NCBI GenBank assembly: GCA_040754455.1 | Contig: JBFMCP010000016.1 | Location: 1-64,000, forward strand | Source of the DNA: Nitrospirota bacterium | GTDB lineage: Bacteria; Nitrospirota; Thermodesulfovibrionia; Thermodesulfovibrionales; Dissulfurispiraceae | Length of the DNA: 64,000 nucleotides | Reading direction: 5' to 3' | Notes under the pieces: model-generated | What the model saw: only the letters and a program-made list of their open reading frames with translations | What the model was told of the DNA's origin: nothing | Databases searched by the model: none | Translations under genes and position numbers: made by a program | Part shown: positions 175 through 60,178 of the stretch, piece by piece | Numbering within the stretch: position 1 is the stretch's first letter | Layout of the letters: every line of letters starts with the position of its first letter

Positions 175-501
175 TGCTATCAAAAGCAGACATTGAGAAA
201 TATCTTGAAGCTTTAAATGACGAACTCCGCAAAAAGGAAGCCATCGGTGAGCTTTATATGGTTGGCGGAGCGGTAATGTGTCTTGTATTTAACGCCAGGG
301 AGTCCACAAAAGATATTGACGCGATCTTCGCTCCCAAGGACATCATTAATGAATGCGCTTCCATTGTGGCGTCCGACTACAATTTGAGCAATGATTGGCT
401 CAACGATGCAGTTAAAGGCTTTGCGTCAGATAAGGGAAGCTTTGATAGCTATGTTGAGTATAGCAATTTAAGAGTGTTTACGGCCATCCCTGAATATTTA
501 T
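174..501 (+). pseudogene. DUF6036-like nucleotidyltransferase, 3'-truncated by IS21
   Basis: MLSKADIE...LYMVGGAVM...RESTKDIDA...DWLND (GG + DxD NTase motifs). The sequence switches to the IS21 end at 502, right after IPEYL. Confidence 0.75.
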
Positions 502-1190
502 TGCGTATTCCGGTGAAATCGAACCCTTGGTCCGAGCATCCCGTACCCCTGCTGAAGGCATAGCGAAGCTGGACGTTAGTATCTTGCTGCTGCTGTTCGG
601 ATTGCGTCAATTTCGTTTTCGTTTTTCTCATCGACTCTCCCTTCAGCGCAAGCTTGTGTGCATTATGCACAATCCTGTCCAGGATGGCATCGGCAAGCGT
701 CGGCTCTCCGATGAGGTCATGCCATTTTGATACTGGATATTGACTGGTGATGATCGTCGATTTCAGCCCGTGCCGATCCTCCATCACCTCAAGGAAGCCC
801 CTCCTTTCTTCGTCAGTCAATGCTGTCAGTCCCCAGTCATCAATGATAAGCAGATCAGTCTTTGCCCATCGATTAAGCAGTTTGATGTAGCTGCCATCAC
901 CGCGTGCAATGGTCAGCTCTCTGAGGAGCCGGGGGCTTCGGTAGGACAGTGCGGTATAGCCCTCCCTGCATGCCTTGTTTGCGAATGCTTCGGCGATATA
1001 GGACTTGCCGATGCCTGTGGGGCCGGTGATGACGATGTTGTGATGATTTCTGCCCCACTGGCAGGTGGCCAACGAGAGGATAAGGGATTTGTCCAATCCA
1101 CGGGGATGCCGATAGTCGATATCCTCAACCGTGGCGTTTTGTCTGAGCCGCGCCGCCTTCAGTCTGGTGTGCAGCTTTCTGTTCTCCCTG
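502..1190 (-). pseudogene. istB: IstB helper ATPase, N-terminally truncated
   Basis: Walker A GPTGIGKS, LLIIDDWG and ADAILDRIVH. The frame extends upstream (RENRKLHTRLKAARLRQNATVEDIDY) only to about 1190, where istA sequence begins. Confidence 0.85.
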
Positions 1191-5198: not shown

Positions 5199-6248
5199 TT
5201 AGCGGCTTTTGTCGATGTCGGGTGCGATCTGCGGTTTCTTCAAATCAATAGGTTTTTGCTTAATGCCAATCTCTTCAATAAGACCCTCCCTCGTTCCCTG
5301 CATCGGGGCCGGCCCAGGGGCAGGCTGCCTCTTTACCGGCTCTGCAGGCGGGACAAGCTTGACGGCATGTTCCTGATAGGGGGCAGAGGTTGCTTGCGGT
5401 ACGCTCCTGGGCTGATCTTCGGGAAAGGCAGAGTAATTTTCCTGTCCGCTCTTCGGCGCTTGAGCGGTCTCCTGCGCCTTCGGCTGGAGGAGGATGATGC
5501 TGATCCTCCGGTTCCTAGGATCCTTGGGATTATCCTTGATCAACAGCTCCGTATCCGCATAACCGACCACCCGTGCGATCCGCCGGGGATCGATATGATT
5601 GGCCTCAAGCTCTTTTCGTGCTGACGAGGCCCGCTGTGTCGAGAGCTCCCAATTAGTGGTCTGTCCTGCCTTCAAGGGAGCAGCATCGGTATGCCCCTCA
5701 ATGGCGATCCGGTTCGGCAGATCCTTCATGTTCTCGCCTACCAGTTTCAGTATCTCCTTGGCGCGGAGGGTAAGCTCGGTGCTGCCGGGAAGAAACATCG
5801 GTCTCCCCTCCATATCGACAAGCTGTATCCTCACGCCCCCCTCAAAGGTGTCGACAATAGCCTGGTCCTTCAACGACTTCAGCTTTTCTTCTATGTCTTT
5901 TTTGAGCTGCTCTTTCAGGGCGTCTGCAGAAAGCTCCCGTGCTCCCTTCCCGAAAGCAGAGGAGGAAGACTGGACGTCTCCGCCCGATTGGTCGAATATT
6001 TGAGAGGATTCCTGAAGGAATGAGCTCCCCGATTGGGAGTCAGACTGGAAAAGGCTGAATTCCCTGAAATACTGAGCTATTGCCGCCCTTTTCTCAGGCG
6101 ATACCATAGCGAGGAGCCACATGAGCAGAAAAAAGGCCATCATAGCGGTCACAAAGTCGGCATACGCAACCTTCCAGCTGCCGCCGTGGTGCCCCTCGTG
6201 GCCCTTTTTAATCTTCTTGATGATGATTATTTTTGATTTATCGGCCAT
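5199..6248 (-). CDS. motB: flagellar stator protein MotB
   Basis: GGSWKVAYADFVTAMMAFF TM segment with the conserved Asp; OmpA-like EGHTD...NWELS..RA...RNRRI; Pro-rich tail. Start chosen at MADKSK. Confidence 0.93.
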   Translation of the reverse strand: MADKSKIIIIKKIKKGHEGHHGGSWKVAYADFVTAMMAFFLLMWLLAMVSPEKRAAIAQYFREFSLFQSDSQSGSSFLQESSQIFDQSGGDVQSSSSAFGKGARELSADALKEQLKKDIEEKLKSLKDQAIVDTFEGGVRIQLVDMEGRPMFLPGSTELTLRAKEILKLVGENMKDLPNRIAIEGHTDAAPLKAGQTTNWELSTQRASSARKELEANHIDPRRIARVVGYADTELLIKDNPKDPRNRRISIILLQPKAQETAQAPKSGQENYSAFPEDQPRSVPQATSAPYQEHAVKLVPPAEPVKRQPAPGPAPMQGTREGLIEEIGIKQKPIDLKKPQIAPDIDKSR

Positions 6249-37610: not shown

Positions 37611-38852
37611 ATGCCGACGAAATATAAAGAAATTGAAGAGCCCGATGTACCGGTCCCGGTAGAGCACCTGATCGTCGGCACCCGTCTGCCCTGCACCATC
37701 TTCTGCATCGACGACGGTACTACCAAGCCGCTCTTCAACAGGGATATGCTCTTCACCGGCATCTCCCTCAATATGCTCAAGGAGAAGAACATTACCGAAG
37801 TTTATATCTATATGAAGGATACACCGCTCTTCGAGCAGTATCTCTCGAAAAACAAGACGCTGCGGGAGCCCCGCGACACGGACAGCAGCGCCGCTTTCAA
37901 AGAATATGCCTTCTACAAGGAGCAATACCATCAGATCGATAGCACCCTCATCATCCCCGGCACCAAGATACACTTCAGTCTCTCCATGCTGGACAAGTTC
38001 AGCTTCACCCCCCTGATCGAGGCATCTCCGGATGCACCAGCGGAAGTGGGTGAGCGCATCGCAACGGTGATGGGCGATATGGTTATCAAGAAATCTGATA
38101 TTCCCCTCTACTACGAATACCTCAATGCGCTCTGGCAGTACACCGACTCCCTCGATACGGACCGGCAGAAAGTCAAAGCCGTCGCCCTCAAGGAAACGGC
38201 GAAGATCATCGTAAAAGACCTCATCGACGATCCGCGGAGCGGAGAGAAGCTGAAAAAGATAGGGCCGGTCGTGAGCGGGATGATCGACTCGATCATGAAG
38301 AACAAAGATACGATTTACGATCTGCTTTCGTTGAAAGGCTACGACTACTACACCTACACCCATTCGGTGAATGTGGCGGCGCTCGCGATCAGTCTCGGGA
38401 TTGCGATCGGCCTGAAGCGCGCAGAGGTCGAGCGACTGGGCATCGGGGCCATGCTCCACGACATCGGCAAAAGCGTCATCTCCCACGAGATACTGCACAA
38501 GCAGGGGAAACTGGATGACCGAGAATATCGGATCATCCAGAGCCATGTCATCGAAGGGGAGCGAATCCTCCGGGCCCACAAGGAATTTCCCGAGGAGGCC
38601 TTCAGCGCCGTCCTGCAGCACCATGAAAAGCTGTCGGGCAGAGGGTATCCGTTCAGGCTTTCAGGAAAAGAGATCACCCCCTTCGGCAGGATTACGGCCA
38701 TTGCCGACTGTTACGACGCCCTCACCACCCGGCGGCCCTACAAGCCCGCCCTCACCCCCTTTTACGCCCTCTCCGTTATCGCCAAAGAGACCGGAAACTA
38801 CGACCCCGATCTCCTGAAGATATTCATCAAGATGCTCGGCAAGATCAAATAG
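37611..38852 (+). CDS. HD-GYP c-di-GMP phosphodiesterase 1
   Basis: YTYTHSVNV, LHDIGK, HHEK..GRGYP and IAD.YDALT..RPYK motifs. Confidence 0.93.
   Translation: MPTKYKEIEEPDVPVPVEHLIVGTRLPCTIFCIDDGTTKPLFNRDMLFTGISLNMLKEKNITEVYIYMKDTPLFEQYLSKNKTLREPRDTDSSAAFKEYAFYKEQYHQIDSTLIIPGTKIHFSLSMLDKFSFTPLIEASPDAPAEVGERIATVMGDMVIKKSDIPLYYEYLNALWQYTDSLDTDRQKVKAVALKETAKIIVKDLIDDPRSGEKLKKIGPVVSGMIDSIMKNKDTIYDLLSLKGYDYYTYTHSVNVAALAISLGIAIGLKRAEVERLGIGAMLHDIGKSVISHEILHKQGKLDDREYRIIQSHVIEGERILRAHKEFPEEAFSAVLQHHEKLSGRGYPFRLSGKEITPFGRITAIADCYDALTTRRPYKPALTPFYALSVIAKETGNYDPDLLKIFIKMLGKIK
38336..38851 (+). repeat. 516-bp direct repeat, copy 1
   Basis: Matches 39791-40306 (offset 1455); shadow-frame ORF translations of both copies are identical. 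Confidence 0.92.
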
Positions 38853-38975
38853 TGATGTTTACAATCGACCATAAACCCAGAATTAACATGATCCGTACTA
38901 ATAGCAACTATCGCGGTAAAAGAATCCACATAAATCACGATAGTAATATAAACGCTTAGCAGGATTTCCAGAGAG

Positions 38976-40307
38976 ATGCTGACAAAGAGCTCAAGAATCA
39001 ATATACAATCCGAACTCGACAGGCTCACCCCTCTTGAGGTGGACAAGCTGTTAGAGGGAAGGCGCCTTCCTTTCGATATTGTAATCAAGGATAGGGGCGT
39101 AGTGAAGCCTCTTTTCAATAAGGGTATGGTCTTTACCGCGGTGGCAAAGGAGATGCTGAGGGAAAAGGGCATCTCGGAAGTGTTCATCACAATAAAAGAT
39201 GCGTCCCTCCTCGAGGATTACCTCGCAGAGACCAAGACCCAGAAGACATCCTTTTACGATGACCCTCTTGCCTTCAAGAACTATTCATTCTACAAGGACC
39301 AGCACCACCAGATCGACCGCACCTTCCTTATTCCCGGCACCAAGATAACATTCAGCCTCTTCATCCTCAACAAACTCAACTTTTCCCCCCTCGTGCATGC
39401 CTCGCCCCTCACGCCCGGGGAAATCAATGAGCTGCTGCTGAACGAAGAGGGAGATATCGTTATAAAAAAATCGGATATTCCGCTATACAACCAATACCTC
39501 GAATCCCTCTCCACCTCTGATACGCTCTCGCAGGAGGACCGAACAAAGGCGTTACGTGCCACGGTCCGTGAAAGAGCGAAGATCGTCATAAGAGACATTC
39601 TCGAATCTCCGGAAGGTCCCAGGAAACTAAAGGGGCTCGGTGCCAAGGAAAAGGCCAAAATCGTGATGAGAGAACTTCTCAACCACCCCGAACGGGGAGA
39701 AAAGATTGAAGAGCTGAAAAAGATTCTGAGCACTATGATCGACAACACACTTCAGGACAGGGACGCTGTGTACGACCTGATCTCTCTGGGAGGCTACGAC
39801 TACTACACCTACACCCATTCGGTGAATGTGGCGGCGCTCGCGATCAGTCTCGGGATTGCGATCGGCCTGAAGCGCGCAGAGGTCGAGCGACTGGGCATCG
39901 GGGCCATGCTCCACGACATCGGCAAAAGCGTCATCTCCCACGAGATACTGCACAAGCAGGGGAAACTGGATGACCGAGAATATCGGATCATCCAGAGCCA
40001 TGTCATCGAAGGGGAGCGAATCCTCCGGGCCCACAAGGAATTTCCCGAGGAGGCCTTCAGCGCCGTCCTGCAGCACCATGAAAAGCTGTCGGGCAGAGGG
40101 TATCCGTTCAGGCTTTCAGGAAAAGAGATCACCCCCTTCGGCAGGATTACGGCCATTGCCGACTGTTACGACGCCCTCACCACCCGGCGGCCCTACAAGC
40201 CCGCCCTCACCCCCTTTTACGCCCTCTCCGTTATCGCCAAAGAGACCGGAAACTACGACCCCGATCTCCTGAAGATATTCATCAAGATGCTCGGCAAGAT
40301 CAAATAA
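38976..40307 (+). CDS. HD-GYP c-di-GMP phosphodiesterase 2
   Basis: Same HD-GYP domain as gene 1; homologous but diverged N-terminus. Confidence 0.93.
   Translation: MLTKSSRINIQSELDRLTPLEVDKLLEGRRLPFDIVIKDRGVVKPLFNKGMVFTAVAKEMLREKGISEVFITIKDASLLEDYLAETKTQKTSFYDDPLAFKNYSFYKDQHHQIDRTFLIPGTKITFSLFILNKLNFSPLVHASPLTPGEINELLLNEEGDIVIKKSDIPLYNQYLESLSTSDTLSQEDRTKALRATVRERAKIVIRDILESPEGPRKLKGLGAKEKAKIVMRELLNHPERGEKIEELKKILSTMIDNTLQDRDAVYDLISLGGYDYYTYTHSVNVAALAISLGIAIGLKRAEVERLGIGAMLHDIGKSVISHEILHKQGKLDDREYRIIQSHVIEGERILRAHKEFPEEAFSAVLQHHEKLSGRGYPFRLSGKEITPFGRITAIADCYDALTTRRPYKPALTPFYALSVIAKETGNYDPDLLKIFIKMLGKIK
39791..40306 (+). repeat. 516-bp direct repeat, copy 2
   Basis: Matches 38336-38851. Confidence 0.92.
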
Positions 40308-45322: not shown

Positions 45323-45590
45323 CCGGGCTCATTGCGCCGGGCCCCGAATATTCCACAACGACAGTTCCAGCGTGTTACGTTGCCGATAAGGCTTCCGGGA
45401 AACAGTGTGAAAATCAAAGGTTCGCTTCTCTTTTTTTTGAGCTACAATTAGAGTAGATGTAAGGCTCTGATCCACAGTGTTCCACGGTTCCCGTGCCTGA
45501 AAATCAGGAGCGGCACTGCAATGGATCATCTCTGTAATGAAGCGCTCTGCGACAAAGCCGCGGAGAGTCGAAGTTGAACAAGGGATAAGA

Positions 45591-47675
45591 ATGGAAAGGG
45601 AGACCATCAGACTTCTTCTTATCGAGGATGACCCCGATGACGCCCAGCTGGTACAGAGACTCCTGTCCAGAGCGGGCACCATCTCCTTCGAGATAACCCA
45701 CGTCTCCAGACTTTCAGAGGGGCTCGACCGGCTTGCTGAAGCCTCCTTTGCAGTCATTCTCCTCGATTTGTGGCTCCCCGACAGCCGTGGATACGATGTA
45801 CTCCGGGCAGTTCACGAAAAGGCGCCTGAAATGCCGATTATTGTGCTTACCGGTCTTGCCGATGAAGAGGTTGCCGTCAAAGCAGTCCAGATGGGTGCAC
45901 AGGACTACCTCGTGAAGGGCCAGATGGACGGTAATCTGCTGGTCCGCTCGATACGCTATGCGATAGAGCGCACGAGAGCCGAAGAGGCATTGAGGGAGAG
46001 CGAAGAGCGATACCGCGAACTGGTGCAGAACGCCTGCAGCATCATCATTAAAGTCGATACCGAAGGGAACATCACGTTCTTCAATGAATTCGCACAGTCG
46101 TTCTATGGATACTCCGAAGACGAAGTCATCGGCAAAAATATCGTACTCACTCTGACGCCCTACTCTGATGTCGCAGGCAAGGACCTCTCGGCAATGCTCA
46201 GGATGGTGAAAGAGGCACCCGAGCGCTACCACAAAAGCGAGAGCGAGAGCATGCGCAAGGACGGCGAGCGGGTCTGGATCGTCTGGACCGCCAAGGCCAT
46301 ACGCGACCATTCAGGGACGGTCACCGGCATCCTTGCCGCTGGACAGGACATTACCGATCGCAAGCGGATGGAAGAGGCCATCTGGCACCAGGCATATCAT
46401 GACATCCTGACCGATCTTCCCAATCGTATGCTCTTCATTGATCACCTGAACCTCGCTCTCACCCAGGCACGACGGCACCGCCATATGATGGCGGTTATGT
46501 TTCTCGACCTCGACCGCTTCAAGTCGATCAATGACTCTCTGGGGCATGCCATCGGCGACCAATTGCTTAAGGCAGTCGCCTATCGGCTGAACAATTACCT
46601 CCGCGAGGGCGACACGGTCGCCCGTATAGGGGGCGACGAATATACCGTACTGCTGCCGCAGGTCAGCCATGAGGAGGATGTGATGACTATTGCACAGAAA
46701 ATCATCTCGGCCTTTCAGCACCTCTTTACGGTCAACCATCACGAACTCCACATCACGGCAAGCATCGGCATCAGCCTTTATCCGGGCGATGGGGACGATG
46801 TGGATACCCTGCTCAAGAATGCCGACATCGCCATGTACCATGCCAAGGAGCAGGGGAGGAACAACTACCAGTTCTATAATCCTTCCATGAACATCAGGAC
46901 AATGGAGCGCGTCATCCTCGAGAACAGCCTCCGGCAGACCCTGGAGCGCAAGGAATTGCTGCTGTACTACCAGCCCCAGGTCGATATCGCCACGCGACAG
47001 ATCGTCTGCGCCGAGGCGCTGCTCCGCTGGAACCATCCTGAGTTGGGGATGCTCAATCCCATGCACTTTATCCCGCTCGCCGAGGAGACCGGTCTCATTA
47101 TACCCATTGACGAGTGGGTGCTCGAGACCGCCTGTGCGCAGAACAAGAAGTGGCAGGATGCTGGACACGCCCCGCTCTGCGTGACGGTGAACCTCTCGGC
47201 GCACCAGTTCCAGCAGCCGAATCTCTCCGAAACCATTTCAGAGGTACTCCGTAGGACGGGCCTCGACCCCCGATGGCTCGAGCTCGAGATCACCGAGAGC
47301 ACCGCCATGCAGAACATCGACACCACTATCCCCAACCTGACCAAACTTACTGAAATGGGCGTTACCGTCGCCATCGATGATTTCGGCACCGGCTACTCAT
47401 CGCTCAGTTACCTAAAGAAGCTCCCCATTCAGAAATTAAAGATCGACAAATCGTTCATCAGCGGTCTCACCATCGACCCTGATTATGAAGCCATTGTCAA
47501 TGCCGTGATCGCAATGGCCCACACGCTGAAGATGCGCGTCATTGCCGAAGGGGTCGAGACAGAAGAACAGCTCTCTTTTCTCCACTCAAGCCATTGTGAC
47601 GAAATCCAGGGCTTCCTTTTCAGCAGGCCACTGCCCGCGGAAGACTTTGTCGAATTGACTGCCGTATATGGCTGA
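45591..47675 (+). CDS. REC-PAS-GGDEF-EAL signalling protein
   Basis: LLIEDD...LLDL receiver domain, PAS/PAC, REGD..RIGGDEY, AEALLRW and DDFGTGYSS. Confidence 0.95.
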   Translation: MERETIRLLLIEDDPDDAQLVQRLLSRAGTISFEITHVSRLSEGLDRLAEASFAVILLDLWLPDSRGYDVLRAVHEKAPEMPIIVLTGLADEEVAVKAVQMGAQDYLVKGQMDGNLLVRSIRYAIERTRAEEALRESEERYRELVQNACSIIIKVDTEGNITFFNEFAQSFYGYSEDEVIGKNIVLTLTPYSDVAGKDLSAMLRMVKEAPERYHKSESESMRKDGERVWIVWTAKAIRDHSGTVTGILAAGQDITDRKRMEEAIWHQAYHDILTDLPNRMLFIDHLNLALTQARRHRHMMAVMFLDLDRFKSINDSLGHAIGDQLLKAVAYRLNNYLREGDTVARIGGDEYTVLLPQVSHEEDVMTIAQKIISAFQHLFTVNHHELHITASIGISLYPGDGDDVDTLLKNADIAMYHAKEQGRNNYQFYNPSMNIRTMERVILENSLRQTLERKELLLYYQPQVDIATRQIVCAEALLRWNHPELGMLNPMHFIPLAEETGLIIPIDEWVLETACAQNKKWQDAGHAPLCVTVNLSAHQFQQPNLSETISEVLRRTGLDPRWLELEITESTAMQNIDTTIPNLTKLTEMGVTVAIDDFGTGYSSLSYLKKLPIQKLKIDKSFISGLTIDPDYEAIVNAVIAMAHTLKMRVIAEGVETEEQLSFLHSSHCDEIQGFLFSRPLPAEDFVELTAVYG

Positions 47676-51933: not shown

Positions 51934-53058
51934 ATGGGCAAACATCTCGTTTTGGTCGGCGGCGGACATGCGCACCTCACGACCATCCTGAGGCTGGAGG
52001 ATTATATCAGGCGTGGTCACCGCGTGACCCTCGTCAGCGCCGATGCCTATCATTACTATTCCGGCATGGGACCGGGCATGCTCGCCGGCATCTACCGTCC
52101 GCAGGATATTCGCTTTCATATCAAAAAAATGTCCGAGGACCGCGGCGCGGTATTTTTCGAGGACAGGGCAGTGAAGATCGACCCGGCACAGCACGTGCTC
52201 CGTCTGCAATCAGGCAAACAGCTTTCCTATGATGTCGTTTCTTTCAATACCGGCAGCGACGTGCCGAAAGAATCCCTGAACGGTTCCGGAGAACGTATCT
52301 TTACCGTTAAGCCGATCATCAATTTATTGCGAGCCCGGAAGTATATCCTCGAGCACATAGAGTCCGGACCGCTGAACATTGTGGTTATCGGCGGCGGCCC
52401 CGCAGGGGTCGAGGTCGCTGGAAATGCCTGGAGGCTTGTTTATAACCATCACGGCACCGCACGGATCATCCTTATTGCCGGACAGCGCCTTTTTCGCGGA
52501 CTTCCTGATAAGGTGCGTTCGCTCGCAATGGATTCGCTGAGCAGTCGCAGCATCGAAGTTCTTGAAGATATCCGTGCGACAAAGATCGAACAGGAATCGA
52601 TCAAACTCTCAAATGGAAGAACCCTCTCTTTTGACATCGCCTTCATTGCTTCCGGTGTCAGGCCTTCTTCTCTATTCAGGGACTCCGGCCTCCCCGCCGG
52701 AGAAGATGGCGGCCTGCTCGTCAATGCGAATCTGCAGAGCATAGCTCATCCTGAAATTTTTGGCGGCGGCGACTGCATCAGCCTTGAGGGCCATCACCTC
52801 CCAAAGGTCGGTGTCTATGCCGTAAGAGAGAATGAAATCCTCCATCATAATCTTTGTGCTGCCCTCGACGGCGGCACCATGAGGACCTTTGAACCGCAGA
52901 AGATCTACCTGCTCATTTTCAATATGGGCAACGGCAAGGGAATATTCTGGAGAAACAACCTCGTCTGGGACGGCAGGACCGCCTTTAGCCTGAAAAATTA
53001 CATTGATAATAGATTCATGAAAAAGTTCCAGGTTTCCGGGGAACGGGAGGAGGAGTGA
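51934..53058 (+). CDS. FAD-dependent pyridine nucleotide-disulfide oxidoreductase resembling the N-terminal domain of fused SelD proteins
   Basis: LVLVGGGHAH, YYSGMGPG, VIGGGPAGVEVA, FGGGDC, PKVGVYAVR and LKNYIDNRFM motifs. Confidence 0.85.
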   Translation: MGKHLVLVGGGHAHLTTILRLEDYIRRGHRVTLVSADAYHYYSGMGPGMLAGIYRPQDIRFHIKKMSEDRGAVFFEDRAVKIDPAQHVLRLQSGKQLSYDVVSFNTGSDVPKESLNGSGERIFTVKPIINLLRARKYILEHIESGPLNIVVIGGGPAGVEVAGNAWRLVYNHHGTARIILIAGQRLFRGLPDKVRSLAMDSLSSRSIEVLEDIRATKIEQESIKLSNGRTLSFDIAFIASGVRPSSLFRDSGLPAGEDGGLLVNANLQSIAHPEIFGGGDCISLEGHHLPKVGVYAVRENEILHHNLCAALDGGTMRTFEPQKIYLLIFNMGNGKGIFWRNNLVWDGRTAFSLKNYIDNRFMKKFQVSGEREEE

Positions 53059-53898
53059 ATGGGAATTCTCGATTATTTCAAACCGGTATCGTCAATGACC
53101 GCTGAGGAGGTCAGGAAATTTCTAAGAGAGAGAAATCCTGATACGTATAATCTCGTCGATGTGCGCCAGCCGCGGGAGTATGAGCGCGGTCATCTTCCCG
53201 GTGCTCACCTTATCCCTGTCGGCCAACTGCCGAACCGTCTCAATGAGATCGATCCGAACAAACCTACCGTTGTCTATTGAGGATCGGGGGTACGCAGCCG
53301 TGCTGCTGCATCGGTCCTTTCCAATGCGGGGTTCAGAGAGGTATACAGTATGGAAGGAGGCATTCGTGCCTGGGAGGGTCTCAGGGCTGAAGGCATACCC
53401 GAGGCCGGCATGATATATTTCGACACGGCGAAAAATCCGGAAGAGCTGATTGCCCTTGCCTGGACGCTCGAAGAGGGCTCACGAAGGTTCTATGCCGAGA
53501 TATCTGCTCAGATCGAGGACAGCGACACATTGACTCTGTTTAAAAACCTCACCACTGCTGAAGAACATCACAAAACAGCGCTCATCAATCTCTATACCAG
53601 CCTTACCGGTAAAGCGCCCGACGCAGGATTTCCCCTTTCGCTCGTTTCGGCAGGAACAACTAATGACTACATGGAAGGCGGTATGCAGGTAAGTGAGGCC
53701 GTAGCATGGGCCAGGGCCAAGAACGTGCATGAGATACTTGAGCTCTCCATAGCACTCGAAACCAATGCCTATGACCTCTATCTAAAGATGCGGAGTGCGG
53801 CTGGCAATGACCGCTCAAAAAAGGTCTTTACGACACTCTACGAAGAGGAGAAAGAACACCTCGATCGCCTTGCAGAGTTATTGGGGAAAAAATTCTGA
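53059..53898 (+). CDS. selenoprotein candidate: rhodanese plus ferritin-like/rubrerythrin-type fusion (279 aa, UGA at codon 74)
   Basis: ORFs 53059-53280 and 53350-53898 share a frame separated by one TGA in VVY-U-GSGVRSRAAA..L...GF..VYSMEGGIRAW. The TGA occupies the rhodanese catalytic Cys position. C-domain has EEHH and EEKEH motifs. Confidence 0.85.
53281..53317 (+). promoter_or_regulatory. bacterial SECIS-like hairpin
   Basis: GGAUCG...GCAGC-CGU-GCUGC...CGGUCC stem-loop starting immediately 3' of the UGA; apical loop contains GU. Confidence 0.6.
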
Positions 53899-55494: not shown

Positions 55495-55672
55495 AACATT
55501 ACCTCACAATAAAATTTATGGCGTGACCTCAACTGCACCGGTTACAGACCTTACAGGGGAGGTTGCTTGAATAAAGCGCTAATCTACAGTTTAAAAGATT
55601 TACGTGGACAGAGTCAATTTTTATCCATCGTGCGCTTTACCTCATCGCGACAACATAGTATACTTTGAAAAT

Positions 55673-55843
55673 ATGGATAAGACGGATAAAAAAGAACAGC
55701 GCAAGAAAAATCCCTGCCCTGACTGCACGTTCTGCCAATGCTGCAGCGAGACCCGTTGCAGCATGTGCCGGCCGACGGGGAAGAAGAAAGCGAAAAAGTG
55801 CGACACACCGAAGGTCCACAAGCCGCTCTTCAGATCCTATTAG
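55673..55843 (+). CDS. small basic Cys-rich protein
   Basis: MDKTDKKEQRKKNPCPDCTFCQCCSETRCSMCRP...; CxxCxxCxxC-x4-CxxC; weak RBS. Confidence 0.45.
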   Translation: MDKTDKKEQRKKNPCPDCTFCQCCSETRCSMCRPTGKKKAKKCDTPKVHKPLFRSY

Positions 55844-58116: not shown

Positions 58117-59883
58117 TTATGCAGCCTTCGGAATCAGCAATCCCTTTGTTTGACTATGGACCAGTGAGGCGTAGTAGCCGTTCATGGACATCAATGTTTC
58201 GTGAGTGCCGCTCTCGGCGATCCGTCCATCCTTGAGCACGAGGATCCTGTCGGCCCTGACTACGGTTGAGAGGCGATGGGCAATGATAAAGGTCGTTCGT
58301 CCTTCGATCAAACGCTCAAGTGCGTCCTGCACCAGCGCTTCGGATTCCGCATCCAGCGCAGAGGTCGCTTCGTCCAGGATGAGGAGCGGCGGATTCTTGA
58401 GCAGCGCCCGTGCAATGTTCACCCTCTGCCGCTCACCTGCTGAAAGACGGCTGCCGCGCTCGCCGACGACGGTATCATAGCCGTCCGGCATGCGCATGAT
58501 GAAATCATGGGCGTTTGCCGCCTTTGCAGCCTCTTCTATTTCACGCCAGGTGGCACCCGGATTTCCGTAAGCGATATTGTTCCGCACGGTATCATTAAAG
58601 AGGAGTGCATCCTGAAACACCACGCCGATCCGGCGGCGCAATGAGCGCTGCTTCAGATTCCTGAGATCCACGCCGTCGATGCGTATGGCGCCTGAAAGCG
58701 GATCATACAGCCTCTGGAGAAGGGCCATCATCGTCGTCTTTCCCGCACCGCTGGGGCCGACCAGCGCCACCACCTCGCCCGGCGTGATATGAAGATCGAT
58801 GTTGTTGAGAATGAGCGTGTCCTTGTTGTAGCCGAAGCTCACCTTATCGAAGACCACCTCCCCCTTTACTGTCCGGACCGGACGTGCATCGGGCATATCG
58901 ACCATGTGATCGTGCTCATCGAGGATCGAGAAGATGATGTCAAGGGATACCGTCGCCTTGCGCATGGTCTGATAGACACCGGTCAATCCCTGGACAGGAC
59001 CGAACAATCCTCCCACATATCCCTGAAAAGCGATGAGGGTGCCGATGGTCGCTTCACCACGGTATACCAGATAGCATCCCAGGGCGATCGCCGCGATCCG
59101 TGCGAGCATCGCGACCAGGTTTTTGGCCGCCCCTACCTTGGTGTCGGTAGCGACACCGCGGAGTACCACCTCATTGGCGCCATGCACACCGGCCAGAAAG
59201 TGCTTCTTTTCCTCTTCTTCAGTGGCAAAGCTTTTTACGGTCAATATCCCTGAAAGCACCTCGTTGAGACGCGAGAAGACTTTCGACCATCGATCGACGA
59301 GAATGCGTTCACGCTGTGTCTGCTCCGAAGCTGCCCACATGCCGATGAGAGCGGGGAGCGGTGCAAAAAAGAGCACGACGAGGGAAAGCCGCCACTCGAG
59401 ACGGAACATCACGATCATGGAGAGAACGAGATACACCACGGCAGGCAGTACATTAAACGCGAGTTCCGACAGCGCCGTGACAAAACCATTCACGCCGCGA
59501 TCGAGTTTGGTCATGATACTGCCGACGCTCTCTTTGCGGTGGTAGGTCAGCGGGAGGGCGTGGAGCCTGCTGACCGTCGCTTCGAGAAGGCCGTAATTCA
59601 CACTCAGCCGGACCCGCCACGCGAGCCAGTTCGAGATGCCATGCATCCCTTCCCGGGAAATGCCGAGGACGAGGAGTCCGCCGATACCGATGGCGAGTAC
59701 CTGCATGGTACCGTTGCCCAGCTTGTCGAACAGATACTTCAACATAAGCGGTTCAATCGCCTCCACGGCAGCCGCGGCAAGCGTCAGACCGAGAATGAAA
59801 GGAATCGAGCCTTTATGGGGTTTCACAAAGGCAAGGGCACGTTTCGTTTTACACAACCAACTGTTTTCCGGTTGCGGACTCAT
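58117..59883 (-). CDS. ABC exporter, fused TMD-NBD (MsbA/Sav1866-like)
   Basis: N-terminal TM domain; GPSGAGKT, LSAGERQR, DEATSALD and IAHRLST; start follows GGAGG. Confidence 0.92.
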   Translation of the reverse strand: MSPQPENSWLCKTKRALAFVKPHKGSIPFILGLTLAAAAVEAIEPLMLKYLFDKLGNGTMQVLAIGIGGLLVLGISREGMHGISNWLAWRVRLSVNYGLLEATVSRLHALPLTYHRKESVGSIMTKLDRGVNGFVTALSELAFNVLPAVVYLVLSMIVMFRLEWRLSLVVLFFAPLPALIGMWAASEQTQRERILVDRWSKVFSRLNEVLSGILTVKSFATEEEEKKHFLAGVHGANEVVLRGVATDTKVGAAKNLVAMLARIAAIALGCYLVYRGEATIGTLIAFQGYVGGLFGPVQGLTGVYQTMRKATVSLDIIFSILDEHDHMVDMPDARPVRTVKGEVVFDKVSFGYNKDTLILNNIDLHITPGEVVALVGPSGAGKTTMMALLQRLYDPLSGAIRIDGVDLRNLKQRSLRRRIGVVFQDALLFNDTVRNNIAYGNPGATWREIEEAAKAANAHDFIMRMPDGYDTVVGERGSRLSAGERQRVNIARALLKNPPLLILDEATSALDAESEALVQDALERLIEGRTTFIIAHRLSTVVRADRILVLKDGRIAESGTHETLMSMNGYYASLVHSQTKGLLIPKAA

Positions 59884-59993
59884 GCCCGCACCTCCCCTGG
59901 TACGACGGAGAAGCCATCGATGCACTTTAGAGAAGATGAAAAGGGGCGTGACAGAACACGACAGGAATTTGCGCTGTTATAACAGCTCATCAT
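59880..59993 (-). CDS. putative 37-aa small ORF coupled to the ABC exporter
   Basis: GGAGGTG-ATGATG start; MMSCYNSANSCRVLSRPFSSSLKCIDGFSVVPGEVRA*; TGA overlaps the exporter ATG (ATGA). Confidence 0.35.
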   Translation of the reverse strand: MMSCYNSANSCRVLSRPFSSSLKCIDGFSVVPGEVRA

Positions 59994-60095: not shown

Positions 60096-60178
60096 TTCTT
60101 CGGCAGCCCGGCTGTCCGTCAGAGCGGACCCGTGGCTTTGTGTCCTCTGGTCACCCAGAGTTTACCCTTTCGGAAACA
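60096..60178 (-). ncRNA. c-di-GMP-I (GEMM-I) riboswitch
   Basis: Minus strand CGAAAGGGTAAA-CTCTGG-GTGA-CCAGAG-GACACAAAGCCACGGGTCCG..CGGACAGCCGGGCTGCCGAA. GNRA-capped P2, GACAC-AAAGCC junction, P3 and GCCGA end. Confidence 0.9.

Follow-up and report, generated by a model that had tools for sequence, protein, structure and literature searches.

We analysed a 64,000-nt stretch of DNA from a Nitrospirota bacterium (assembly GCA_040754455.1, contig JBFMCP010000016.1, positions 1 to 64,000; hereafter the window). The subject of this study is a gene at 53059–53898 that very probably encodes a selenoprotein, in which a rhodanese domain with selenocysteine (Sec, U) at its active site is fused to a ferritin-like di-iron domain. 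The features of the locus are listed in Table 1. A single reading frame runs from ATG 53059 to the stop codon TGA 53896–53898, as the nucleotide sequence, the list of open reading frames (ORFs) and the translation with TGA read as U all agree. The TGA at 53278–53280 is the sole in-frame stop before the end of the gene, and the interval 53281–53349 beyond it is open. Standard ORF calling on the window breaks this frame into a 73-aa ORF (53059–53280) and a 182-aa ORF (53350–53898). A first-pass annotation of the same DNA had described two ORFs in one frame, separated by this TGA alone, and a local motif VVY-U-GSGVRS; the gene is as described, and the translated peptide around the TGA reads KPTVVY-U-GSGVRSRAAAS. 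M1 and the N-terminal residues MGxxDYFKPV agree with the family consensus in a protein alignment, and GGGAGGAGGAG may serve as the Shine-Dalgarno sequence. The read-through protein is devoid of Cys, leaving residue 74 as its single Cys/Sec position.

Table 1. Features of the predicted selenoprotein gene and its upstream neighbour (window coordinates).
Feature	Coordinates	Strand	Basis
NDH-2/FSP1-like flavin adenine dinucleotide (FAD) flavoprotein gene, nearest family TIGR03169	51934..53058	+	Pfam Pyr_redox_2, NCBIfam
Shine-Dalgarno-like GGGAGGAGGAG ahead of ATG 53059	53045..53055	+	Read from the sequence; overlaps the end of the upstream gene
Complete predicted selenoprotein gene, 279 codons plus TGA stop, Sec at codon 74	53059..53898	+	Frame; continuous ~279-aa homologues
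Rhodanese domain, residues 14–106	53098..53376	+	Pfam PF00581, E 1.2e-22; 80.7 bits, cutoff 22.2
In-frame TGA, predicted to be read as Sec (U74), nucleophile of the rhodanese loop U-G-S-G-V-R-S	53278..53280	+	Cys/TGA column in homologues
Extended hairpin (candidate), lower stem GAGGAUCGG / UCGGUCCUU around the apical stem	53279..53319	+	Constrained fold, -16.5 kcal/mol
Conserved apical stem-loop of the Sec insertion sequence (SECIS) type	53294..53309	+	RNAalifold, 63 Sec forms; synonymous sites
Ferritin-like (erythrin-type) four-helix di-iron domain, residues 112–275	53392..53883	+	Pfam PF02915, PF13668

We first consider the two halves of the protein. The Pfam Rhodanese match extends over residues 14–106, and the domain therefore spans the TGA. 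The AlphaFold2 (AF2) model of the protein has an overall per-residue confidence score (pLDDT) of 88.1 and a predicted TM-score (pTM) of 0.85, with a weak linker at residues 116–123; across the rhodanese part, pLDDT is 91–96. Foldseek superimposed this part on single-domain rhodaneses with a root-mean-square deviation of 1.2–1.5 Å, and a PDB profile search with the rhodanese half returned single-domain rhodaneses together with the rhodanese domains of 3nta, 8a56, 3icr and 5ve3. Rhodaneses of the sulfurtransferase type have a six-residue active-site loop, C/U-x-x-G-x-R, followed by S or T. The loop of the read-through protein, U74-G-S-G-V-R79-S80, is of this type. A search of protein collections with the read-through protein gave 739 matches, the best 119 of which were aligned with the query (n = 120); G77 is present in 120/120 of these sequences, and R79 and S80 in 118/120. 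The catalytic residue of a canonical rhodanese loop (U-x-x-G-x-R-S) is here encoded by UGA 53278–53280.

The C-terminal domain scored 49.8 bits with PF02915, for which the gathering cutoff is 22.8, and its four modelled helices comprise residues 127–149, 155–183, 223–247 and 251–279. The paired E...ExxH ligands proposed for this domain in the first-pass annotation are all but invariant: E138, E168, E234, E264 and H267 are found in 120/120 aligned sequences and H171 in 119/120, forming two sets, E138 with E168xxH171 and E234 with E264xxH267. The closest solved structures in a PDB profile search were TM1526 (1vjx, E 3e-11), 2fzf, symerythrin (3qhb) and rubrerythrins (8fuh, 4di0). A canonical rubrerythrin has a C-terminal rubredoxin-like iron domain with four Cys ligands; such a domain is absent from this protein, which has no Cys beyond the Sec position, and the protein is therefore not a canonical rubrerythrin. 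Foldseek found no solved chain spanning both halves, the best TM-score on the query being 0.41.

Relatives of the protein are informative on how the TGA is read. Among the database matches listed, nearly all are continuous proteins of about 279 aa that contain both domains, and many carry the JGI name 'rhodanese-related sulfurtransferase/rubrerythrin'. The column of U74 holds Cys in 116 of the 119 aligned homologues, Gly in two and Trp in one, as expected from the earlier proposal that the TGA lies at the active-site loop and that the rhodanese fold resumes after it. The single Trp belongs to homologue P0010, an ENA record, which is probably a TGA form translated under a table in which TGA means Trp. 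The closest match listed is 97% identical but comprises only 182 aa; its annotation reads 'ferritin family protein [Nitrospirota bacterium]', and it lies on a 132-kb contig. Since this relative is present only as the 182-aa piece, it represents a second genome in which the gene is split in the same way, and it bears out the prediction that standard annotation would divide the gene.

Because protein databases cannot hold TGA forms, genomes were scanned with the alignment, using one genome per species (GTDB). The scan found 556 stretches encoding a relative, of which the best 80 were kept; the window's own genome is not among these, and the best locus is 63% identical to the window protein. The codon at the U74 column is TGA in 62 loci, TGC in 11 and TGT in 7, although, the 80 best loci being the closest to a Sec-form query, the proportion of TGA overstates the share of Sec in the family as a whole. 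The carriers are genomes or metagenome-assembled genomes (MAGs) labelled Nitrospirota/Thermodesulfovibrionia, Thermodesulfobacteriota (Syntrophales, Desulfobulbales and Geobacteraceae), Deferrimicrobiaceae (Deferrimicrobiota) and others. With the window added, the TGA loci form a set of 63 Sec forms, to be compared with 18 Cys forms. In all 63 TGA genes the frame is open to the normal C-terminus, giving proteins of 269–293 aa, and together with the continuous homologues this upholds the idea of one 279-aa protein. A maximum-likelihood tree requires at least six switches between Sec and Cys, four of them forced by well-supported branches. Two copies are oddly placed in this tree: those of L073, a MAG labelled Pedobacter, and L080, a MAG labelled Limnocylindria, nest within the Desulfuromonadales and Deferrimicrobiaceae clades, which suggests mis-binned contigs or horizontal transfer.

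We next describe the sequence downstream of the TGA, where the first-pass annotation had noted a hairpin. The region aligns without gaps in the 63 TGA forms, and RNAalifold predicts a single consensus helix that pairs columns 17–21 with columns 28–32. In the window, this is a GCAGC/GCUGC stem formed by 53294–53298 and 53305–53309 (+17–21 and +28–32, counted from the U of UGA), closed by the 6-nt loop CGUGCU (53299–53304, +22–27). Each of the five stem pairs is kept in 63/63 Sec forms. Variation within the stem is limited to one compensatory change of C-G to U-A (L034) and two G-U wobbles (L002, L006). In the loop, +23 is G in every Sec form, while +24 is U in 33 and G in 30.

The bases of the stem encode R-S-R-A-A-A, a peptide that is conserved in Cys forms too, and codon choice therefore provides the test of whether the RNA itself is constrained. 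For the 63 Sec forms, the synonymous third positions +18, +21 and +30 have entropies of 0.12, 0.20 and 0.00 bits; the corresponding values for the 18 Cys forms are 1.62, 0.92 and 1.90 bits. Synonymous entropy over the 60 nt upstream, in contrast, is alike in the two sets (1.62 for Sec forms and 1.59 for Cys forms), and the difference in the stem was unchanged when the Sec forms were subsampled to n = 18. All five pairs are possible in only 2/18 Cys forms, L046 and L073, and the Ser codon within the stem is AGY rather than TCN in 18/18 Cys forms; both points are compatible with a relic hairpin left by recent Sec-to-Cys conversion. Mean folding energy of the +14 to +35 segment is -10.9 kcal/mol for Sec forms and -6.8 kcal/mol for Cys forms (Mann–Whitney U test, p 1.4e-7, uncorrected for relatedness). 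Based on these comparisons, the hairpin noted in the first-pass annotation stands as a 5-bp stem with the loop CGUGCU that accompanies the TGA.

Longer pairing around this apical stem was also considered. In the window, a lower stem, GAGGAUCGG / UCGGUCCUU, can be drawn that takes in the GA of the UGA. When the apical stem was imposed on the fold, 6–12 outer pairs formed in 61/63 Sec forms, a count made without a shuffle or Cys-form control. No consensus lower stem emerged from RNAalifold across the 63 Sec forms, and the outer pairs fall off the conserved columns. In the whole window, Rfam at gathering thresholds reported no SECIS family.

Taken together, we consider it very likely that 53059–53898 is a genuine Sec-decoded gene for a 279-residue selenoprotein. 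SelB and Sec-tRNA would decode the UGA at 53278 by binding this hairpin, the usual arrangement in bacterial selenoprotein mRNAs. Several observations weigh against this reading. The stem is just 5 bp and near-invariant, so that covariation is minimal, with one compensatory change among 63 sequences. A phylogenetically paired comparison of Sec and Cys forms, which reduces the set to four independent contrasts, gave three in the expected direction, none in the opposite direction and one tie (p ~0.25). The window hairpin alone (53270–53340) has a minimum free energy of -22.5 kcal/mol and a z-score of -0.45, with 60/200 shuffles equalling it; as there is no gain over shuffles, the single window sequence gives no evidence for a hairpin. 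Rfam yielded no match to 53200–53420 at E <= 10. The database proteins listed are mostly Cys forms. Finally, no tRNA-Sec was found in the 64-kb window (ARAGORN, 0 tRNAs), and an NCBIfam scan of its 57 ORFs found no selA, selB or selD; nor did any of these ORFs score above the cutoff of a selenoprotein family.

Three other explanations of the in-frame TGA were weighed against Sec decoding. In the first, the TGA is a true stop and the locus makes two products, a peptide of 73 aa and a stand-alone ferritin-like protein of 182 aa initiated at ATG 53350, either always or mainly when Se is scarce. Gene callers yield precisely this split, and Sec insertion and termination are known to compete at UGA in bacteria. 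However, ATG 53350 lies within the rhodanese fold, at residue 98 in a beta strand of the AF2 model; conservation of the rhodanese domain extends both before and after the TGA, and the Cys-form homologues are single continuous proteins. Both variants taken together, we regard this explanation as very improbable. Decoding of the TGA as one of the standard amino acids (Trp, Gly or Cys), whether by a variant code or by near-cognate read-through, seems less probable again. The Trp of P0010 could be cited in its favour, but the homologues overwhelmingly carry Cys, not Trp or Gly, at this column, and a hairpin linked to TGA is needed for Sec insertion and not for a plain change of code. Moreover, TGA terminates 12 of the 35 family-supported genes of the window, including the rhodanese-di-iron gene itself and the flavoprotein gene upstream; as TGA is an ordinary stop in these genes, genome-wide reassignment is excluded. 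The weakest explanation, a pseudogene or sequencing error in which a Cys codon was mutated or misread to TGA and the rhodanese part is dead, takes some colour from the single base that separates TGA from TGC or TGT and from the annotation of the closest listed relative, which retains the C-terminal piece alone, but it is hardly credible given TGA at the same column in different species and phyla, downstream sequence that is fully conserved and open in 63/63 genes, and synonymous constraint specific to TGA forms. All three alternatives are contradicted by the data on homologues, codons, the hairpin and stop usage, and the Sec-rhodanese/di-iron fusion family is a real, widespread and largely unannotated one in anaerobic bacteria.

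The gene immediately upstream encodes a flavoprotein, whose stop codon TGA 53056–53058 abuts ATG 53059 and is preceded by a GGAGG-rich stretch. Its nearest relatives in the PDB are YjlD/type-II NADH dehydrogenases (NDH-2) and FSP1/AIFM2, and its only conserved Cys lies within the FAD motif GGGDC. After TIGR03169, the next NCBIfam match is TIGR04369, an oxidoreductase/SelD-related fusion; with NF049943 (type III sulfide:quinone oxidoreductase, selenoprotein subtype) it scored 43.5 bits against a cutoff of 525. In 32/80 loci (21/62 Sec and 11/18 Cys), the gene next upstream, on the same strand, is a homologue of the flavoprotein gene. We also considered a read-through fusion of flavoprotein and rhodanese, since the two share a frame across TGA 53056–53058, and rejected it: the stop varies among TAA, TAG and TGA in other loci, and the distance from flavoprotein stop to rhodanese start ranges there from overlaps of 4–14 nt to gaps of 12–259 nt. 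The arrangement at 53056–53061 suggests translational coupling rather than a second site of recoding. Gene order suggests that the flavoprotein and the selenoprotein may be physically coupled. When 799 flanking ORFs were clustered, no further recurring neighbours were found, only scattered signal-transduction, MutS2/Smr, radical-SAM and LemA genes.

What the protein does can be addressed with less assurance. Sec74 would take up sulfane S or Se to give an adduct, Se-S(H) or Se-Se(H), in a reaction that is ordinary for a rhodanese except that Sec is both a better nucleophile and a better leaving group; the flavoprotein would supply electrons from NAD(P)H; and the di-iron centre would be the redox partner, either reducing or oxidising the bound chalcogen or removing O2 or H2O2 that would destroy the adduct. 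A small redox module of this kind, composed of Sec74, flavoprotein and di-iron centre and processing or delivering S or Se, is the likeliest mechanism, although we propose it only tentatively. Precedents for a redox domain joined to a rhodanese exist among the nearest solved rhodanese domains (3nta, 8a56, 5ve3). The first-pass annotation had gone further and linked S/Se transfer to a di-iron redox centre; of this claim, the domain architecture is borne out, and the link in function keeps the standing of a proposal. Two findings on the flavoprotein tell against the module. Its score with TIGR03169 ('Nterm_to_SelD') is 275.4 bits, below the cutoff of 310, over a match covering 2–365 of 365 residues, so that TIGR03169 is the nearest family and membership is uncertified. 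In addition, of the 71 loci with 1300 nt or more of upstream sequence, just 32 have the flavoprotein beside the gene.

A rubrerythrin-like scavenger of peroxide or O2, in which the Sec-rhodanese replaces rubredoxin as the point of electron entry and the flavoprotein is the NAD(P)H reductase, appears unlikely on balance. The C-domain does match Pfam Rubrerythrin, the partner is an NDH-2-like reductase, rubrerythrins are peroxidases in anaerobes, and the hosts, to go by the locus titles, are presumably for the most part from anaerobic lineages. Against these points, the rhodanese loop is of the six-residue sulfurtransferase type, no second Cys is present to resolve a selenenic acid, the protein has no rubredoxin-type CxxC, and, among solved structures, the C-domain is closest to uncharacterised TM1526-type proteins and not to rubrerythrin proper.

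A donor of Fe together with sulfide or selenide has the attraction of using all three conserved parts, but we consider it less likely again than the scavenger. Here, the ferritin-like domain would give Fe and the rhodanese S or Se, the flavoprotein would reduce both, and what results might be used to repair Fe-S clusters or to bring selenide to SelD. The flavoprotein family speaks for such a role: according to the accessible part of PMC2432076, a COG1252 NADH oxidoreductase fused to SelD is predicted to make the substrate of SelD. The accessible text of a 2026 review likewise describes the in vivo Se donor for SelD as incompletely elucidated (PMC13188914). The existence of Cys forms argues against it, and selD was not among the ORF clusters shared, within ~4.5 kb of the gene, by three or more members of the set formed by the 80 loci and the window, a look in which only some clusters bear family names and which covers the commoner neighbours. 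Generalised to Sec and Cys forms alike, the same idea describes flavoprotein and rhodanese-di-iron protein as a reductive chalcogen-delivery module, a candidate Se donor system for SelD or an Fe and S(e) donor, and we hold this to be equally unlikely. In such a module, the rhodanese Sec would capture S0 or Se0, and NAD(P)H electrons would release sulfide or selenide. If that were true, a selenoprotein would act upstream of selenoprotein synthesis.

Several features elsewhere in the window were recorded. Rfam recognised a c-di-GMP-I-GGC riboswitch aptamer (cyclic di-GMP; 60098–60175, minus strand) with 66.3 bits, the gathering score being 59, and an ORF for an MsbA-like ABC exporter (58117–59925, minus strand) follows 173 nt downstream of it. 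Genes for c-di-GMP signalling in the window include HD-GYP-like response regulators (37611–40307) and a PAS-GGDEF-EAL protein (45537–47675). A flagellar block at 5199–26538 (minus strand) contains two MotA/MotB stator pairs, FliD and flagellin, with contiguous PseB, PseC, PseG and PseI; the presence of pseudaminic-acid biosynthesis genes beside flagellar genes suggests that the flagellin is glycosylated. In the 449–2756 region, an IS21 element, with istA at 1125–2231 and istB at 449–1096 (both minus strand), adjoins a fragment of an IS256-family transposase (2310–2756). A 79-aa ORF at 55604–55843 (plus strand) contains a Cys-rich stretch, CPDCTFCQCCSETRCSMC, and lies between an S1-like gene and a gene for an FKBP-type isomerase.

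In each of the 62 related genomes that carry the TGA, a stop-aware gene caller would split the gene in the way seen in the window. If truncated annotation is general, counts of the selenoproteomes of Nitrospirota and Desulfobacterota-type anaerobes miss this family, and the catalytic half, with the only reactive residue, is thrown away; a curated model that includes the Sec position would mend the annotation. The locus brings together three parts that are unlinked in the searchable literature, namely a sulfur-carrier fold with a selenol as its nucleophile, a carboxylate-bound di-iron centre and a flavoprotein of the SelD-fusion type. For the TIGR03169-type flavoprotein family, fusion to SelD is the sole functional clue. 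The two-protein system offers an expressible test case for how reduced S or Se is made and handed on in anaerobes.

Sec-containing rhodanese-like proteins were reportedly first described by Zhang and Gladyshev in 2005 (in Bioinformatics), and the UxxG Sec-rhodanese of that report may be this very fusion, seen before. In line with the first-pass annotation, Sec-rhodaneses are an established kind of selenoprotein: the accessible text of the review tabulates five forms (UxxS, UxxG, CxU, UxxG and UxxxxU), identified by PF00581 or NCBIfam models (PMC13188914), and they are abundant in deltaproteobacterial symbionts and occur in Deltaproteobacteria-type anaerobes (PMC1976440). Like these proteins, the one described here has Sec in place of the catalytic Cys of PF00581, and U-x-x-G is the motif of forms 2 and 4; unlike it, the entries in that text are defined by the rhodanese domain alone, and the words 'ferritin' and 'rubrerythrin' have no occurrence there (PMC13188914). 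The protein scored 32.4 bits with the curated Sec-rhodanese model NF041203 (LYCAU type; cutoff 115) and 28.3 bits with the TsoB model NF045694 (cutoff 805). No model in NCBIfam release 20 was reached by the fusion protein, the best score being 62 bits against cutoffs of 102–647. A search for selenoprotein or selenocysteine combined with rhodanese and with rubrerythrin or ferritin-like found no such combination in the searchable literature, and the same held for TIGR03169. One paper listed for fused rhodanese and rubrerythrin has a passage on rhodanese, which deals with something other than this architecture. As far as that literature and NCBIfam extend, it is the fusion with a di-iron domain that is new, Sec-rhodaneses themselves being already known.

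In bacterial SECIS elements such as that of Escherichia coli fdhF, a hairpin within the coding sequence lies a few nt 3′ of the UGA and presents a G, often GU, in an apical loop about 20 nt away. The hairpin of the Sec forms is likewise in the coding sequence 3′ of the UGA, its invariant G falling at +23 and being followed by U in 33/63, a geometry that we take to be that of the fdhF loop. It differs from fdhF in that the conserved stem has 5 bp only, the lower stem is not conserved by column and Rfam gives no match. With TM1526 (1vjx), 2fzf, symerythrin (3qhb) and rubrerythrin (8fuh, 4di0), the protein shares a four-helix bundle and two E...ExxH sets; unlike these erythrin-type proteins, it has an N-terminal rhodanese domain, no Cys and no C-terminal rubredoxin-like domain. 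The closest parallels to the overall design are the persulfide dioxygenase-rhodanese PRF (5ve3), the NADH-dependent persulfide reductase Npsr (3nta), CoA-persulfide reductase (8a56) and CoADR-RHD (3icr), in which a rhodanese is likewise combined with an iron or flavin redox domain acting on persulfides. Compared with those fusions, the flavoprotein at this locus is the product of a separate gene and is Cys-less and NDH-2-like, while the domain fused to the rhodanese is a di-iron four-helix bundle and the predicted nucleophile is Sec.

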